Assembly (NCBI GenBank): GCA_018365815.1
Contig: JAGZJH010000001.1
Coordinates: 53,176 to 117,175 of the forward strand
Length of the DNA stretch: 64,000 nucleotides
Reading direction: 5' to 3'
Source of the DNA: Erysipelotrichaceae bacterium
GTDB taxonomy: Bacteria; Bacillota_I; Bacilli_A; Erysipelotrichales; Coprobacillaceae
The position numbers and the translations under genes are program-made. The notes beneath the pieces are model-generated. The model searched no databases and had not been told where the DNA came from. It was given only the letters and a program-made list of their open reading frames with translations. Positions 2,518 through 27,504 of this stretch are shown piece by piece (the first letter of the stretch is position 1; each line of letters begins with the position of its first letter).

Positions 2518-3099
2518 TTATTCGTTTTCTCTTTTGACAAGTTCATATGAAAAACTTGTCATCCAATCTGTCACCAATTTTAGATCTTCTGGTTTTTTTT
2601 GATCAATTAACGCTTCATACATACATTGTTTGTTTTCATCCGAAGCCAATGCAATAGTCATTTCAAGTTCGGGAATTTCTTCAACCGTTGCATCAATTTT
2701 ACGAGCCGGTCCGGTTTTCATCGTACAGTTTGGATATGCTTTAAGTTTAATTTGATCATCCATATCTAATACTTTTTGCATGATTTTAAAAGTTGGCATA
2801 CTTGCATCACCAAAAGATGTAATATTATCTTTTAGTTTTTTATTGATCATCCCATAAATTTTATTGTAAACATCAACCGGCACATGAGCAGTAATTTTTA
2901 ACTCACCAGTACCGGCTTGTTTTGTGTAACTTCTAGTTACTACACCTTTACATTTTTTTGAAATATTTTTAACATCTAGCGATTCTTCACTTGTTCCAAC
3001 ACAACCAAATGGAATGGCAGTTATTTCACCTGCTAAAATAATAGACATCTCATCTACTTGATATTCTGAAAATTCTTTTTCCATGTTATTCCTCCTCAA
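2518..3099 (-). CDS. Major tail protein
   Basis: 193-aa ORF directly upstream of the chaperone pair; size and position are typical of siphovirus major tail proteins. Confidence 0.55.
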   Translation of the reverse strand: MRRNNMEKEFSEYQVDEMSIILAGEITAIPFGCVGTSEESLDVKNISKKCKGVVTRSYTKQAGTGELKITAHVPVDVYNKIYGMINKKLKDNITSFGDASMPTFKIMQKVLDMDDQIKLKAYPNCTMKTGPARKIDATVEEIPELEMTIALASDENKQCMYEALIDQKKPEDLKLVTDWMTSFSYELVKRENE

Positions 3100-3912: not shown

Positions 3913-4195
3913 TAGTTTTGTTGATTTGAATATAATAATTACTTTCTAAATCAATATTGAAAAATGGTATGACAATCTTTTTTTCAATTTTCTTTTCAAA
4001 GATGTTTTCCATTTCTAAATCACTAATTCTAATCGTCTTCTTATCGAAAGGTGCTTTTGCCACTAATGTAAATTTTGTAGGGTTTTCCTTTGCGTTAAAA
4101 TCGGATATTTTCTTTTTTTCTTTTAAAAAATAAATAAAACCGTCACGATACCTTTGCTTTTGTTTCTTTTTCATGTTCGGACACCTCATATTCAA
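3812..4195 (-). CDS. Head closure / head-tail joining protein
   Basis: Basic 127-aa protein in the connector module. Confidence 0.3.
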   Translation of the reverse strand: MNMRCPNMKKKQKQRYRDGFIYFLKEKKKISDFNAKENPTKFTLVAKAPFDKKTIRISDLEMENIFEKKIEKKIVIPFFNIDLESNYYIQINKTNALYNILHADPTDNEIYLYLCAYKGGNRHVDIE

Positions 4196-20801: not shown

Positions 20802-21551
20802 ATGAAAAAATTTTTAAAAGAAAATAAAAACTTAGTTATTGGGATATTTTTATTAGTAATTATCTTTCCATTTATTATATTAGTCCCTTCTCCAATAGGT
20901 TTTATTCCTTACGAAGTTGGTTTAACTTTAATTGGTTATGGAGGTTCAATTATTGGTGGTTTTCTCACTTTGTACGGCGTCTGGTGGACAATTAATGATC
21001 AAGAAAATAAAAGAAAAAATGATTTAGCTATACAGTATATGCCTTTAATTACTTGCGATCAATATGAAGTTGAAACAAATGATATTGTTGATAATATTAT
21101 GGATTGTATTTCAACATCCGTATTCTCAACATTTAAAGGAGAAATATTAAATAGCAATATAAAAGAAGTAAAAATCATACTAAAATTTACTAACCACGGT
21201 AGAGGTGAGGCTATAGTTACAAATTTAAAATCTTTACTTGCAATATATCCAGCAGAAGATGATAATTTTATAGATGAATATCATGATAATCCTTTAGAAT
21301 ACAACAACATCATAATAGCCGTTTCACAATCAAAAAATGTTAATTTAATATTATCGTTTGATAAAACAAAACCAATACCTAAAAAAATGATATTTAGTAT
21401 ATATCTTACTTATTTTTCACATTTTGACAACAGTGAAATTAATCTTCATACTTCTTTACGCATAAAGATAGATAAAAATACATTCATAAGTGATAACAAA
21501 ATTCAAGTAGATATATTTTCTTCAAATAATGAATACGAAAAAAACATATAA
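20802..21551 (+). CDS. Membrane-anchored protein (two N-terminal transmembrane helices plus roughly 180-aa soluble domain); candidate superinfection-exclusion or abortive-infection protein
   Basis: Immediately downstream of cI in the same orientation; ribosome-binding site TAGGAAGA. Confidence 0.4.
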   Translation: MKKFLKENKNLVIGIFLLVIIFPFIILVPSPIGFIPYEVGLTLIGYGGSIIGGFLTLYGVWWTINDQENKRKNDLAIQYMPLITCDQYEVETNDIVDNIMDCISTSVFSTFKGEILNSNIKEVKIILKFTNHGRGEAIVTNLKSLLAIYPAEDDNFIDEYHDNPLEYNNIIIAVSQSKNVNLILSFDKTKPIPKKMIFSIYLTYFSHFDNSEINLHTSLRIKIDKNTFISDNKIQVDIFSSNNEYEKNI

Positions 21552-21597
21552 GTTTTAATTTTTCTAAAGTAATTTTGAACTAGTATTCCGTGAACAA

Positions 21598-21630
21598 CAA
21601 AAAAAACTCCCCTGCGCCAACAGGAGAGAA
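21598..21630. terminator. A9 run plus hairpin CTCCCCTG-cgccaa-CAGGAGAG (first of three related elements)
   Basis: Hairpin preceded by an A-run, so it acts as an intrinsic terminator for leftward transcription. Confidence 0.4.
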
Positions 21631-21744
21631 TTATAGTGATACGCCAATATAAAAAATTACAATATTTTTGATTTAACCTGACAGAGGGAAACAATATAAA
21701 AAACAAAAAAATATTGAATTTATCATACTTTTCCACAACAAAAG

Positions 21745-21773
21745 ATTGACATACTGTATACAGTATGGTATAC
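21745..21773 (+). promoter_or_regulatory. Consensus-like sigma-A promoter (TTGACA, 17-bp spacer, TATACT) with an 18-bp perfect palindrome CATACTGTATACAGTATG in the spacer
   Basis: Seen in sequence, 21745-21773; followed by ribosome-binding site AAGGAGGA and an ATG at 21798. Confidence 0.6.
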
Positions 21774-21797
21774 TATATTTGTAAGGAGGAAAGGTAA

Positions 21798-21920
21798 ATG
21801 AGTAAGAAAAATAAAAAGAGTTCTAAACAACCAGTCGCCAAACAAGTCTTAGAACTCATCAAATTAGTGCTAGAAATCATTACTCTAGCGATTGCATTAA
21901 TCAAGAGTTTAGGGAATTAG
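21798..21920 (+). CDS. Small membrane peptide (40 aa, Lys-rich N-terminus plus one transmembrane helix)
   Basis: ATG with a strong ribosome-binding site. Translation MSKKNKKSSKQPVAKQVLELIKLVLEIITLAIALIKSLGN. Confidence 0.4.
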   Translation: MSKKNKKSSKQPVAKQVLELIKLVLEIITLAIALIKSLGN

Positions 21921-21981
21921 TTCCCTTCTCTCTTGCTCATTATATCATATATACATAAATTATGAAAGGGGCATAAATTAT

Positions 21982-22071
21982 ATGAAACACTTTGAAACAA
22001 TTAAAATGATACTAAACATAATTATTATAATACTGTTAATTGCGTTATTATCAACATGGTTTATAAAATAA
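21982..22071 (+). CDS. Small membrane peptide (29 aa, one transmembrane helix)
   Basis: Ribosome-binding site GAAAGGGG. Translation MKHFETIKMILNIIIIILLIALLSTWFIK. Confidence 0.3.
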   Translation: MKHFETIKMILNIIIIILLIALLSTWFIK

Positions 22072-22081
22072 GGAGATTCTT

Positions 22082-22270
22082 ATGAAACAAGAAAAATTTG
22101 ACCAAAAAAAATATACCCAAGAATGGGATAAAAAAAACATGAAACTTGCTGGTGCAAGATATAAAACTGAATTCGTTGACGAGTTCAAGGAAGCATGTGC
22201 AAAGCTAGGTATTAAACAAAGTGATGTATTTAGAAAGGCTATGCAGGAAGTGATAGACAAAGCTAAATAA
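22082..22270 (+). CDS. Ribbon-helix-helix (CopG-like) protein
   Basis: Ribosome-binding site AAGGAGA. Strand-helix-helix pattern MKLAGARYKTEFVDEFKEACAKLGIKQSDVFRKAMQEVIDKA. Confidence 0.4.
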   Translation: MKQEKFDQKKYTQEWDKKNMKLAGARYKTEFVDEFKEACAKLGIKQSDVFRKAMQEVIDKAK

Positions 22271-22294: not shown

Positions 22295-22328
22295 AAATAA
22301 AAACCACCCTACGCCAATAGGATGTTCT
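22295..22328. terminator. A-run plus hairpin CCACCCTA-cgccaa-TAGGATG (second related element)
   Basis: Same architecture and same C/A mismatch as the hairpins at 21598 and 22404. Confidence 0.35.
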
Positions 22329-22403
22329 TATACTTACACTGACATTGATCGTCATCAAATGGTAAGCTACCTAGAAAATTCTAGCATATTAATTTATTTT
22401 ATT

Positions 22404-22440
22404 CAAACAAAAAAACCACCCTACTCGCAATAGGATGGTC
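22404..22440. terminator. A7 run plus hairpin CCACCCTA-ctcgcaa-TAGGATGG (third related element)
   Basis: Same architecture as the other two; ACTCGCAATA recurs at 22447-22456. Confidence 0.35.
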
Positions 22441-22535
22441 ATGAGATACTCGCAATATCTCTAATGTAAAAACTTTTCGGACGTGTTTTTACGTACTTAA
22501 TTATAGCATGATTAACACGTTCAAATCAAACTAAA

Positions 22536-23699
22536 ATGAAAGGACGTGTTTTTATCATGGCAAAAAAGCGTAAATATAGGCGGAGACCTAACAAAAGTGG
22601 AACAGTAGTCAAACTATCAGGCAATCGAAGAAAGCCATTCATGGCTAAAATAACAACAGGTTACGATGTCATCACTGGCAATCAAATTCAAAAACCTATC
22701 GGTTATTTTGAAACTCGACAAGAAGCACTTGATGCCTTATCTATTTATTCACTTACTCAAAATAAAAATTTAAACTCTAATACTTTAAAAGAGTTAGGTG
22801 GTAATACATTTGATGAGATCATGAAAATACAAAATAAAAGTCTACCTAATTTTGGGCAAATATATGACATTATTTTTGACAAAGATTTATGTAATCTTTC
22901 AAAGCAAAGTCAAGGTGCTTATAACTCTGCTTTTAAAAGATTAAAAGTGTTACATCACAGAAATATTTCGGATATTAATTTATTTGATATGCAAAATCAA
23001 CTTGATTTAGCGTCTACCGAAGTTCAAGAAAAAACCTTATTAAACATGAAAAGTATTTGTGTTAGAGTATTTGAATATGCCGTTATTCATCAATATATTG
23101 AACGTAACAGTGATTTTACTTCGTACTTAACTTGTAAGTCGAATAAGACAACAAACACGCACAGAAAGCATATACCGTTTAGCATAGATGAAGTTAAACT
23201 TTTATTTGATGATTACTCAATTGAATCTAAATGTGTATTAGTTTATATTTTTACTGGTTGTCGACCAATCGAATTAATCAACTTTAAAAAAGAAAATTTA
23301 TATTTAGATGTCTTATCAACTGATAATGGAAACGAACTAAAAATCGATTATATTATTGCCGGTTCAAAAACAGATGCAGGAAAAAACAGAATTATCCCAA
23401 TTCACCATTTAATTAAACCTTTTATAAAAGAAGTAGTTAATGAATTAGGAAAATATAAAGCACCTATACAAGTGAGAAATAAAATCTTTATGCCTTTAAT
23501 GAAAAAGTTAAAACTTGAACATATTCCATACGATACACGACATACATTTGCTACTTTAGCTAAATTATCAAACATTGATGAGTTTTCAAGAAAGCGAATT
23601 ATGGGACATAAAAGTGTAAATATAACCGATGATGTTTACACTCATTCTATCAAAAATAAATTGTATATTGAGATGAATAAAATCAGTCTAAATATTTGA
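22536..23699 (+). CDS. int: Tyrosine integrase with N-terminal arm-type DNA-binding domain (probable start at ATG 22557)
   Basis: C-terminal R...HDTRHTFAT...MGHKS...VYTH catalytic tetrad and tyrosine; transcribed outward toward the prophage end. Confidence 0.9.
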   Translation: MKGRVFIMAKKRKYRRRPNKSGTVVKLSGNRRKPFMAKITTGYDVITGNQIQKPIGYFETRQEALDALSIYSLTQNKNLNSNTLKELGGNTFDEIMKIQNKSLPNFGQIYDIIFDKDLCNLSKQSQGAYNSAFKRLKVLHHRNISDINLFDMQNQLDLASTEVQEKTLLNMKSICVRVFEYAVIHQYIERNSDFTSYLTCKSNKTTNTHRKHIPFSIDEVKLLFDDYSIESKCVLVYIFTGCRPIELINFKKENLYLDVLSTDNGNELKIDYIIAGSKTDAGKNRIIPIHHLIKPFIKEVVNELGKYKAPIQVRNKIFMPLMKKLKLEHIPYDTRHTFATLAKLSNIDEFSRKRIMGHKSVNITDDVYTHSIKNKLYIEMNKISLNI

Positions 23700-23778: not shown

Positions 23779-24045
23779 TTAAATATTTCTGGTATGTAAA
23801 ATACAAGGATATTTCATATTTTTAACTAGTTCACTCAATTTTGCTTCATATCCGTTTGCTTCGATATGATAATATTTTAGACATTCTATTAATCCATACA
23901 TATTCACTCCTGTAGGTGTCATTTTACATTTTTGTTTAATACAATCAATTTCTTCATTAATTTTAAAATATTTTAAAACCATCATGATACAATATGGTCC
24001 ACACGCATAAGTTTCATCTTGTAAATAAATCGGTAATTTTCCCAT
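23779..24045 (-). pseudogene. Truncated peptidase C39 domain (N-terminus of a bacteriocin-processing ABC transporter); ends one residue before the catalytic His
   Basis: Q9-x5-C15 (LQDETYACGPYC) and PCILHTRNI, equivalent to CvaB PAILHWDLN(HFVVL); stop at 23779 abuts the prophage int end. Confidence 0.6.
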
Positions 24046-25382: not shown

Positions 25383-25599
25383 TTACACGTTTAAAACTTT
25401 CAATAAAAACCATCATTACAGTTTATATTTTTATTTGGACTAAAAAATTTATTATTTGGTATTCAATTTTATCTTCTATTTCATGTTTAAACATCATGAA
25501 TTCATCTTACACTCCATGTTTAAGTATTATGAATTTACCCTCTATTTCTTATTTAAATATTATTAAGTTTAAAACTATTAATGATGCTTATATTTAATA

Positions 25600-27504
25600 G
25601 GATAGAGGAATAAATTTAAAGATTTATTGCCCCTCCCGTTGACCCGTACGTACGAGTCTCGTATACGGCTCTACATTTATATCGTAATCACAAACTCTTA
25701 AGATAGTAATCTAGGGGATGGACTAATCCAGGTCTATCTCCTATTTTATTGTCTAGAACAGTTGATGATAAAGTGAAGTTCACTACATCTAGTCCACTTC
25801 TTCTATACCACCCTAATCTTGAATTGGCACATTTAAAGATATCTTCATGGTTAAATCTACATTTATATTTAATGTTTAATACCATTAGATTTCTATAAAT
25901 GGTCTTTGGTTTTTTCCATTGTTTAATGATGATACATCGTATCTTGTGGCGTAACCATTGTCCGAACGTATCAAGAAATGTCTTTATGCTTCCTATCTTA
26001 AAGTAGTTTATCCATCCTCTTACTATTTGATTTACTTTTGCAAATGTTATCGCTAACAGCCTTGAAACGGCATGTTTTCTTTTAAGATACTTTTGTATCT
26101 TTGAATACAAGCGTTTTTTCTATCTTTGGTAGGTTTGCATTTCCATTCCTGAGAGTTCTTATAAAAGGTAAAGCCTAAGAATTGCTCCTTCATTGGACGT
26201 ACTACTTTTGTTTTCGTTGCACTTACTTTCAAAAATAGTTTTCTTTCTAGCCTTTCATTACTCGATTTGCACTCATCTCACTTTTAGTGAATATGATACA
26301 ATCATCTGCATATCTCACAAATCTTAAATTTCTTGACTCTAATTCCTTATCAAATTTATCTAAATAGATATTTGATAAGATGACACTGATAGGACCTCCT
26401 TGAGGTGTTCCTACTGTTGTACTTTTGATAAGTCCTTTGTCTAATACTCCTGCTCTTAAATATGCTCGTATTAAATGTAATGTTGTTGCGTCATTGACAT
26501 TCTCTCTTAAGATTGAAATTAATTTGTCATGATTTACTGTATCGAAGAATTTCTCTATGTCTAAATCTACTATCCATTCATAACCTTCGTTTAAGTAATA
26601 TAATACTTCTTCCATTGCCATATGTGTACTTCGTCTTGGACGAAAACCATAACTGTGTTCACTAAATATTGGCTCATAGATAGTACTTAATACTTGTGCC
26701 ATGGCTTGTTGGATTACTCGCTCAACTACTGTTGGAATACCTAATGGTCTTTGTTTTCCATTTGGTTTTGGAATATATAGACTCTTTTGACAGGCATTGG
26801 TCGATATTGTTTATTCATTATCTTTGAAATTAACTCTTCTTGGCATTGTTCAAACCAATATTCAATGTCATGTACTGTCATTTTATCTACTCCAGGTGCT
26901 CCTTTATTTTGTTTGACCTTTTTAATAGCCATTTCTAAATTTTCTTTACTTAAAATCTTTTCTATTAATTTCATTTGCTGCTCCTCCTTCTATTTGTAAA
27001 TTTATTTGAAACCATCCCAATTACTTTTACCATCTATGATTACGATTCATAGGTCTAGGCTATCCTCATATTCGGACTATCCAAACATTACTTATAGTGA
27101 TTTGCACTTTATAAACGTTTCAGTCCTTCAGCATTTCTACCTACTATGACTTCATCTGACTTCTTATGATAAACCTTTTTCGACCGAGGGTACTATCACT
27201 GATTTTAAAGTTTACTAGGCTTCCTCGTCCATAAGACCTCCCGGGGTAATTCACGAATCCTATTTCTTTCACAACGTCTTGATTTACTGTCTTGGTTTTA
27301 CGTTTATCTTTCGGATTTCAGTTTGTTTAGCAACCTTATCCACCATTTAGCCTCATCAAGTTTCTATGCGTACGCTCAAAAGAATTGTTACATCACTTCC
27401 TTCACCCATTACATCACTATCAGTGGCTTGTGGTTCACTACAATTGGCGGTAACTACCTGTGGTTGGTTTATCTCCAACTGAATTCATGCTATGCCCGGC
27501 ACAC
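25600..27504 (-). mobile_element. Decayed bacterial group II intron (class C-like, about 1.9 kb) inserted just after an intrinsic terminator; 3' boundary approximate
   Basis: 5' GTGTG at minus 27504, directly after the hairpin plus T8 of the upstream gene. Domain V-like GAGCCGTATACGAG...GTACGTACGGGTC at plus 25642-25671. Reverse-transcriptase/maturase ORF fragments on the same strand. Confidence 0.65.
25688..26974 (-). pseudogene. Group II intron reverse transcriptase/maturase, broken into three ORFs by frameshifts
   Basis: Reverse-transcriptase motifs GFRPRRSTH, DIEKFFDTVNHD, GTPQGGPIS, YADD; maturase RGWINYF; 2-nt frame break at RVYI/PKPNGKQRPLGIPTV. Confidence 0.75.

Follow-up and report, generated by a model that had tools for sequence, protein, structure and literature searches.

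The window analysed here is a 64,000-nt stretch of contig JAGZJH010000001.1 (assembly GCA_018365815.1, Erysipelotrichaceae bacterium), and the present study concerns a small three-gene cassette that it carries in the slot between the cI and int genes of an Erysipelotrichaceae prophage. To the left of the cassette, the minus strand bears the terminase, portal, major head, DnaC-like, Ant and cro-like genes. The plus strand reads, in order, a LexA-like S24 cI repressor, a membrane open reading frame (ORF) of 249 amino acids (aa), the cassette and a tyrosine integrase. The cassette itself belongs to the lysogeny module and lies on the lysogenic strand, the lytic genes being on the opposite one. 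It consists of a promoter with an embedded palindrome followed by a 40-aa peptide (peptide 1), a 29-aa peptide (peptide 2) and a 62-aa ribbon-helix-helix (RHH) protein. An earlier note on this DNA had described these elements, and re-reading of the window sequence confirmed the promoter, the palindrome and the three genes at the coordinates below, as well as the int-cI slot.

21746..21774, plus strand: cassette promoter; TTGACA at 21746-21751, 17-nt spacer, TG at 21766-67, TATACT at 21769-21774; 11/12 consensus match
21750..21767, no strand: operator, the probable RHH binding site; 18-bp perfect palindrome CATACTGTATACAGTATG, that is CATACT-GTATAC-AGTATG
21798..21920, plus strand: peptide 1, toxin candidate; 40 aa, Lys-rich N-terminus and amphipathic membrane helix; ribosome-binding site AAGGAGG at 21783-89, 8 nt before the ATG
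21982..22071, plus strand: peptide 2; 29 aa, one very hydrophobic transmembrane helix; weaker ribosome-binding site AAAGGGG
22082..22270, plus strand: RHH protein, putative autorepressor; 62 aa; ribosome-binding site AAGGAG overlapping the peptide-2 stop codon

The earlier note had proposed a search for this arrangement in other prophages, and such a search shows that the three genes and the promoter-palindrome recur in about 60 distinct versions. RHH homologues fall into 53 clusters and about 150 loci from GTDB genomes, IMG/VR and metagenomes, almost all of them from Erysipelotrichales or gut viral contigs; L numbers (L001 and so on) denote the related loci that were compared with the window. 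The roughly 60 distinct cassette sequences, found in Erysipelotrichales prophages, follow one common plan: the promoter-palindrome, then a peptide with a strong ribosome-binding site starting about 50 nt past the -35, a stop-codon hairpin, usually a second short transmembrane peptide, and the RHH gene last. Where the context is visible, the RHH gene lies between cI and int, near cargo such as Abi_2, HSDR_N-like and DUF3800 genes. No RHH homologue was found by tblastn in 50,697 GenBank phages, and blastn of the cassette region against GenBank phages gave trivial repressor matches only. The cassette family is widespread in human-gut Erysipelotrichales prophages and entirely unannotated, because the peptides are seldom called as genes. 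Among the carriers are the cultured strains Anaerorhabdus furcosa ATCC 25662 (L029), Holdemanella sp. MSK.7.32 (L034), Eubacterium sp. TM05-53 (L032) and Firmicutes bacterium M10-2 (L020).

The operator and the ribbon-helix-helix protein

The cassette promoter is the top-scoring promoter-like site within 19.5-24 kb of the window, and the great majority of about 45 loci have an equivalent promoter architecture 270-430 nt 5' of their RHH gene. The palindrome overlaps the final 2 nt of the -35 and 16 of the 17 spacer nucleotides. Its sequence occurs as a single copy in the window, with none near int. By itself an 18-bp perfect palindrome is not significantly rare against the shuffled window, which has 29% GC: 4 were observed for 0.8 expected, and at least one was present in 53% of the shuffles. 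Its significance comes instead from its position in the promoter and its conservation in the roughly 45 related loci. Indeed, the family operator consensus is always CATAnT-N6-AnTATG and always lies inside the promoter spacer.

The window RHH protein has a 100% identical counterpart, annotated as hypothetical, in an Erysipelotrichaceae metagenome-assembled genome (MAG). In the family alignment it is near-invariant apart from residues 21-27, which are predicted to form a beta-strand. The turn between the two RHH helices is of the conserved G-x-S/T/N kind, with G43 nearly invariant and Q46, S47 and D48 invariant within L-G-I-K-Q-S-D. In an AlphaFold2 model of the monomer (predicted local distance difference test, pLDDT, 78), residues 20-28 are extended and residues 29-42 and 46-61 are helical. 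Pfam matches to the RHH clan were obtained for 10 of 22 relatives, the best at E 5e-5 and every one below the curated cut-offs, while neither a profile search against PDB nor Foldseek was significant; the RHH fold is therefore supported at clan level only. The chain has a conserved aromatic N-terminal helix (F6, Y11, W15) and stops at helix B, without a C-terminal toxin-binding tail. In one lineage (L047, L050, L053, L056-L061) the RHH protein carries an acidic extension of about 85 aa at its C-terminus, and the fusion protein has 149 aa.

When the family is compared, the operator centre changes with RHH residues 22, 24 and 26, as in the following pairs.

Residues L-G-R: operator centre GTATAC
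Residues Q-K-S/T: operator centre rGTACy
Residues T/P/M-R-S: operator centre AGGCAT-like
Residues K-S-A: operator centre ACCGGT
Residues S-S-R: operator centre GCGTGC
Residues S-S-K: operator centre CAATTG or GAATTC
Residues x-G-Q: operator centre ATATAT or TTATAT
Residues K-S-S: operator centre ACGTAC

Among 36 unique beta-strand/operator combinations, the mean operator-centre distance is 1.7 positions if residues 24 and 26 match and 5.6 if they differ, with none of 2000 permutations as extreme (uncorrected for shared ancestry). Furthermore, recombinant cassettes keep RHH type and operator paired across peptide subtypes: L081 and L170 share both and differ in peptide subtype, while the window and L010 have similar peptides with a different RHH and a different operator. 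Hence the operator travels with the RHH gene. Three MAGs carry two cassettes each (L019/L024, L021/L025 and L023/L026), and in every pair the RHH beta-strand types differ, which fits selection for non-cross-reacting copies. The co-variation of the operator centre with the variable beta-strand argues strongly, if indirectly, for RHH as the repressor of its own promoter, and autorepression of the cassette promoter is, as a prediction from family comparison, well supported. The suggestion in the earlier note that the RHH protein is a candidate to bind the palindrome thus gains support from the way in which the operator centre tracks the beta-strand residues. The series of 18 beta-strand residue types, each with its own operator centre, represents a data set on DNA reading by RHH proteins, and the family could serve as a source of orthogonal repressor-promoter pairs.

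About 25 nt 5' of the -35, a motif ATTGAATTTATCA (window 21692-21735) is kept in the window, L001, L010, L081 and L170, and A-rich direct and inverted repeats are observed nearby at 21645-21722. The motif or these repeats could be an UP element or a second binding site.

The RHH gene is not always accompanied by peptides. Promoter, operator and RHH without peptides are found in L065 (3560-4310), L070 (3900-4186) and L015 (about 3950-4186); the L065 unit lies beside a tRNA, at the prophage's lysis end, and two small acidic proteins are encoded after it. Given that such units exist, RHH is a portable regulator with no intrinsic tie to a toxin. This bears on two alternative readings of the protein. 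According to the first, the cassette would be a type II-like system in which RHH itself binds and neutralises the peptides; the autoregulated operon would agree with it and the aromatic N-terminal helix could offer a binding surface. However, the chain has no toxin-binding tail beyond helix B, its partners would be membrane-embedded peptides of 29-40 aa, RHH occurs without peptides, and the antisense signals described below are left unexplained, so that we hold this reading to be very improbable. According to the second, RHH would mainly regulate int or excision, as a directionality or int-expression factor, with the peptides as incidental passengers. The RHH gene lies immediately 5' of int in the window, L007 and L170, and since no plus-strand terminator was found between the two genes, int is possibly co-transcribed with the RHH gene. 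Other genes intervene in L001 and L010, however, and the only operator copy in the window is away from int, the RHH-only unit of L065 is at the opposite prophage end, and the promoter, which has a self-operator, lies on the lysogenic strand. An int-regulating role as the main one is, in our view, improbable.

The two peptides and the predicted antisense RNA

Peptide 1 has a Kyte-Doolittle hydropathy of 2.41 over residues 17-35, and its helix displays a polar stripe made of E19, K22, E26, T29, A33 and K36. The Lys-rich membrane helix proposed by the earlier note is therefore retained, although the segment is amphipathic with a polar stripe instead of plainly hydrophobic. The single transmembrane helix proposed for peptide 2 is borne out by a Kyte-Doolittle value of 2.83. 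Of the strong ribosome-binding sites that had been attributed to both peptides, AAGGAGG of peptide 1 deserves the term, whereas that of peptide 2 is the weaker AAAGGGG.

The ratio of nonsynonymous to synonymous differences (pN/pS) is 0.2-0.8 for peptide 1 across homologues and, for peptide 2, 0.2-0.5 in the family of the window and 0.05-0.15 in the L007 family. pN is below pS for both peptides in both families, and this purifying selection indicates that both are real, translated genes. Peptide 1 shows less synonymous divergence than either peptide 2 or RHH. A short transmembrane peptide is present at the peptide-2 position in most cassettes, and peptide 1 occurs in unrelated forms: the window type with a Lys-rich N-terminus and an amphipathic helix, a second form that runs from an acidic N-terminus through a hydrophobic core to a C-terminal Lys/Arg tail, and shorter forms too. 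A hydrophobic core with a C-terminal Lys/Arg tail is seen in the peptides of many cassette versions, and a hydrophobic region followed by a positively charged tail is characteristic of the type I toxins of C. difficile prophages (PMC7699646). In size, hydropathy and charged stripe, peptide 1 resembles the small (<60 aa) membrane-active toxins of type I systems.

The peptides match no family in Pfam, NCBIfam, PHROG or PADLOC. The earlier note had also considered holin-like proteins or a two-peptide bacteriocin, and neither is supported. The holin reading was rejected given the position of the cassette in the lysogeny module, outside the lysis cassette, and the lack of a family match; the bacteriocin reading was rejected given the lack of a double-glycine leader and of a family match.

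Around peptide 1, the minus strand carries signals that predict an antisense transcript.

21939..21967, minus strand: predicted antisense promoter; -35 TTCATA/TTTCAT at 21967..21961, TG at 21947..21946, -10 TATAAT at 21944..21939; 10/12 with TG
21807..21857, minus strand: in-ORF terminator; hairpin 21857..21818 followed by TTTTTATTTTT at 21817..21807, templated by Lys codons; folding free energy (dG) -13
21911..21926, no strand: stop-codon hairpin, with the peptide-1 stop inside it; serves as 3' stem-loop for the peptide-1 cistron and as 5' stem-loop for the predicted antisense RNA
21807..21932, minus strand: predicted cis-antisense RNA, antitoxin candidate; about 125 nt, complementary to peptide-1 codons 4-40 and 3' flank; predicted from promoter and terminator
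21597..21628, minus strand: upstream intrinsic terminator; stem 21628..21607, 9 bp, 5 GC pairs, TTTTTTTT tail

The antisense -10 with its TG extension reads TGATATAAT at 21947..21939 on the minus strand. Such a TG-extended -10 sits on the minus strand 27-42 nt past the peptide-1 stop codon, and a TGnTATAAT-type motif is found there within 80 nt of the stop in 48 of the 59 distinct cassettes, compared to 7 on the plus strand. The chance of the motif in a 21-nt window is 0.014, and it is present there in at least 8 of about 16 unrelated peptide-1 families.

Within the peptide-1 ORF, the nucleotide sequence itself is conserved along the stretch GAGTTCTAA...TTAGAACTC. On the minus strand it forms a hairpin followed by TTTTTATTTTT, and therefore an intrinsic terminator that ends about 10-20 nt inside the ORF. 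This terminator is kept with compensatory changes in L001, L010, L081, L170, L019 and L025, among them a doubly synonymous change from TCT/TTA to TCC/TTG in L170, and an equivalent is present in the unrelated peptide-1 family of L007/L037. A terminator of this kind, on the minus strand and within the ORF, was found in 25/59 cassettes compared to 1/59 in the plus-strand control; one peptide-1 family without an in-ORF terminator has a terminator about 45 nt 5' of the -35 instead. Nearly all cassette versions have the stop-codon hairpin (dG -12 to -20, 46-nt window), which shows compensatory A-U to G-C changes. Taking both hairpins together, 5 pairs are altered on both sides in the 9 sequences compared, and none of 500 shuffles matched this.

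The predicted antisense RNA folds into four hairpins with -34.7 kcal/mol (z = -3.7) and matches no Rfam family. A fold-back between 5' and 3' parts that would hide the peptide-1 start codon is predicted in the window. In the manner of a type I system, the conserved signals thus predict an overlapping antisense gene with its own promoter and terminator. The likeness to type I toxins drawn by the earlier note is strengthened by this conserved antisense promoter and terminator, which it had missed. More generally, these signals illustrate that antisense elements inside tiny ORFs are detectable by comparison alone.

The upstream terminator fits the minus strand, since its G.U wobble on that strand becomes an A.C mismatch on the plus strand, and the same element is found 5' of the cassette in L010/L011. 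It is likely a backstop against antisense read-through toward cI and the minus-strand lytic genes.

The antisense signals weigh on the main rival to a toxin module, namely a lysogenic-conversion moron whose non-toxic membrane peptides would, for example, block the DNA entry of superinfecting phages, with RHH setting the level and the antisense signals serving to fine-tune or insulate. The cassette lies in the cI-int cargo region amid defence-like genes, small prophage membrane proteins are a known route to superinfection exclusion, no toxin family is matched, and the upstream minus-strand terminators could merely stop read-through into the minus-strand lytic genes. However, the convergent promoter and the in-ORF terminator are kept across unrelated peptide-1 families, and such a moron is hard to square with conserved antisense signals because these imply that peptide-1 synthesis needs active suppression. 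Many variants also have the hydrophobic and poly-Lys/Arg design of type I toxins. We regard an exclusion moron as possible although unlikely.

A repressor combined with an antisense RNA is also the logic of plasmid copy control, and the cassette could be the remnant of such a unit, with a CopG-like repressor and a countertranscript RNA as in pMV158; precomputed PF10723 RepB-RCR_reg matches exist for some homologues. Nevertheless, no rep gene follows, int or cargo genes being 3' of RHH, all contexts are prophage lysogeny modules, and tblastn with RHH gave no homologue in 72,556 plasmids (PLSDB). This origin is extremely improbable.

Flanking elements and probable insertion site

Two further minus-strand features, possibly part of the cassette, lie between the RHH gene and int.

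22296..22440, minus strand: two further terminators, 22324..22305 and 22440..22414, each after its own TG-extended promoter-like site

They are part of two small RNA (sRNA)-like units, 22296-22371 and 22405-22493 on the minus strand, with strong minus-strand terminators and a UUGGCG or UUGCGAG loop. Two other prophages have a related element that carries the same terminator (L001 4610-4700 and L017 4190-4290). The units match nothing in Rfam, and neither operon nor int mRNA is significantly complementary to them (z -0.8 to +1.6). The hexamer CGCCAA is shared by the peptide-1 ORF and the flanking terminator loops, and a kissing-loop between them was considered. It was rejected because the ORFs of L001 and L010 have CGGCAA while the flanking loops retain CGCCAA.

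The integrase start region is flanked by two copies of a 13-nt repeat GGACGTGTTTTTA, at 22479-22491 and 22542-22554, and a partial copy in inverted orientation lies between these at 22514-22525. A similar arrangement is seen in L170 at about 3010-3075, and these repeats may be regulatory sites for int. At the other side of the cassette, the 249-aa ORF (20802-21551, plus strand), immediately 3' of cI, has N-terminal transmembrane segments and constitutes a further cargo gene of the lysogeny module; it has no usable family match in Pfam, NCBIfam, PHROG or PADLOC.

Beside the 3' end of int ends an 88-aa ORF (23779-24045, minus strand) that represents the N-terminal part of a Peptidase_C39 domain (E 3e-17). 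Since this gene fragment abuts int, the prophage is probably inserted into a bacteriocin-exporter-type gene. A tRNA-Leu lies further right of the C39 fragment and is adjoined by group II intron remnants at 25597-25673 and 26247-26702, both on the minus strand, recognised as an Rfam Intron_gpII match of 35.3 bits (cut-off 40 bits) and a reverse-transcriptase RVT_1 fragment. An Rfam scan of 18-27 kb (E up to 1) gave the tRNA-Leu and a sub-threshold group II intron piece and nothing else.

A proposed doubly controlled cassette and the closest known systems

We propose, with about an even chance of being right, that the cassette is a type I toxin-antitoxin-like module in which the toxin promoter is also autorepressed by the RHH protein of its own operon. 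Two locks would thus hold a small membrane-active peptide within a self-contained prophage cassette. The first would act on transcription: RHH, encoded by the last gene of the operon, would occlude the strong promoter, its dimeric beta-ribbon reading the centre of the spacer-filling palindrome, as the covariation suggests. Because the repressor is encoded by the operon whose promoter it would occlude, the operon would repress itself. The second would act on RNA: judging from the conserved signals, the convergent promoter between peptides 1 and 2 would yield an antisense RNA of about 125 nt ending at the hairpin and U-run in the 5' part of the peptide-1 ORF. Its pairing with the peptide-1 mRNA may, as in Firmicute type I systems, block translation or trigger RNase III cleavage. 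Peptide 1, with its amphipathic helix, charged stripe and Lys-rich end, is the toxin candidate, peptide 2 could be a second, weaker toxin or a membrane partner, and translation of the RHH gene would be coupled to that of peptide 2.

Speculatively, decay or titration of RHH and the antisense RNA would allow peptide 1 to be made and to damage the membrane, the trigger being loss of the prophage or an infecting phage that shuts off host expression. The biological role, whether prophage addiction or abortive infection, is likewise speculative. A more elaborate form of this proposal, which we find doubtful, would make the cassette a hybrid addiction/abortive-infection device. At least 15 orthogonal RHH-operator specificities would let co-resident prophages avoid cross-regulation, and the toxin would be released on depletion or titration of the cognate RHH by prophage loss, host shut-off or related phage DNA with the same operator. 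If true, this would be a kin-sensing toxin switch with transcriptional and antisense locks.

Several observations weigh against the proposal of a doubly controlled type I-like module. The Lys-rich end of the window peptide 1 is N-terminal, the reverse of the classic type I toxin layout, and no known type I toxin family was found among 19 peptide-1 variants (Pfam, NCBIfam), with one weak TisB_toxin match (E=0.012). The antisense -10 was undetected in 11/59 cassettes and a minus-strand terminator in 16/50, and the start-codon fold-back is not significant across families, z being mostly above -2 in 26 cassettes. The compensatory counts of the hairpins come from 9 sequences only, and shared ancestry is left in the beta-strand/operator statistics. 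Finally, the portability of RHH tempers the claim that it evolved for a toxin.

No type I module that encodes its own repressor was found described in a literature search; if confirmed, the cassette would bring a module-encoded protein repressor into type I toxin-antitoxin biology. Partial parallels exist. With the type II operons that have RHH antitoxins (RelBE, ParDE, TacAT), the cassette would share the RHH fold, a palindromic operator in the promoter and operon autoregulation; it differs from them by an RHH without toxin-binding extension, a toxin-first gene order and putative toxins that are tiny membrane peptides of 29-40 aa. In plasmid pMV158, the small RHH autorepressor CopG binds a pseudo-symmetric element at its own promoter, and the countertranscript RNA II acts on the same mRNA, controlling repB. 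A small RHH autorepressor and a countertranscript on the same mRNA, here predicted, are thus common to both, whereas a replication initiator is controlled there and the cassette has neither a rep gene nor a plasmid homologue in PLSDB. In E. coli tisB/istR-1, a charged-stripe membrane toxin is under a promoter repressor protein and an RNA antitoxin, the repressor being the global LexA and the RNA divergently encoded. The charged-stripe peptide, here a toxin candidate, and the proposed dual protein/RNA control are alike, but the repressor of the cassette is module-encoded and its predicted RNA is fully overlapping.

The nearest parallels to the cargo are CD0977.1/RCd11 of C. difficile phiCD630-1 and relatives (PMC7699646) and yonT-yoyJ/SR6 of B. 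subtilis SPbeta (PMC5848175). In SPbeta, one polycistronic mRNA carries yonT and yoyJ as consecutive small toxin ORFs, and the antisense promoter lies between the two (PMC5848175), an arrangement which the two tandem ORFs of the cassette and the predicted promoter between them resemble. What these Firmicute prophage type I systems and the cassette share is their prophage location, a strong ribosome-binding site, a small peptide that is hydrophobic and positively charged at one end, and a cis-antisense RNA with its own promoter, here predicted. In contrast, the cassette peptides have no sequence relationship to those toxins, the Lys-rich end of the window peptide is N-terminal, and the cassette adds an operator in the toxin promoter and an operon-encoded RHH repressor, which are lacking there.

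The nearest regulatory parallel is the immunity I moron of phage P22. Its repressors Arc and Mnt are RHH proteins. Together with the sar antisense RNA, they control ant (PMC2629481). The cargo of that moron is an antirepressor instead of membrane peptides, arc is promoter-proximal while the RHH gene of the cassette is last, no sequence similarity is found and the host phylum is different. Nevertheless, both are temperate-phage morons in which an operon-encoded RHH protein represses the promoter of its operon through an operator, as the covariation suggests for the cassette, and in which a small antisense RNA from inside the operon, here predicted, represses one cistron.

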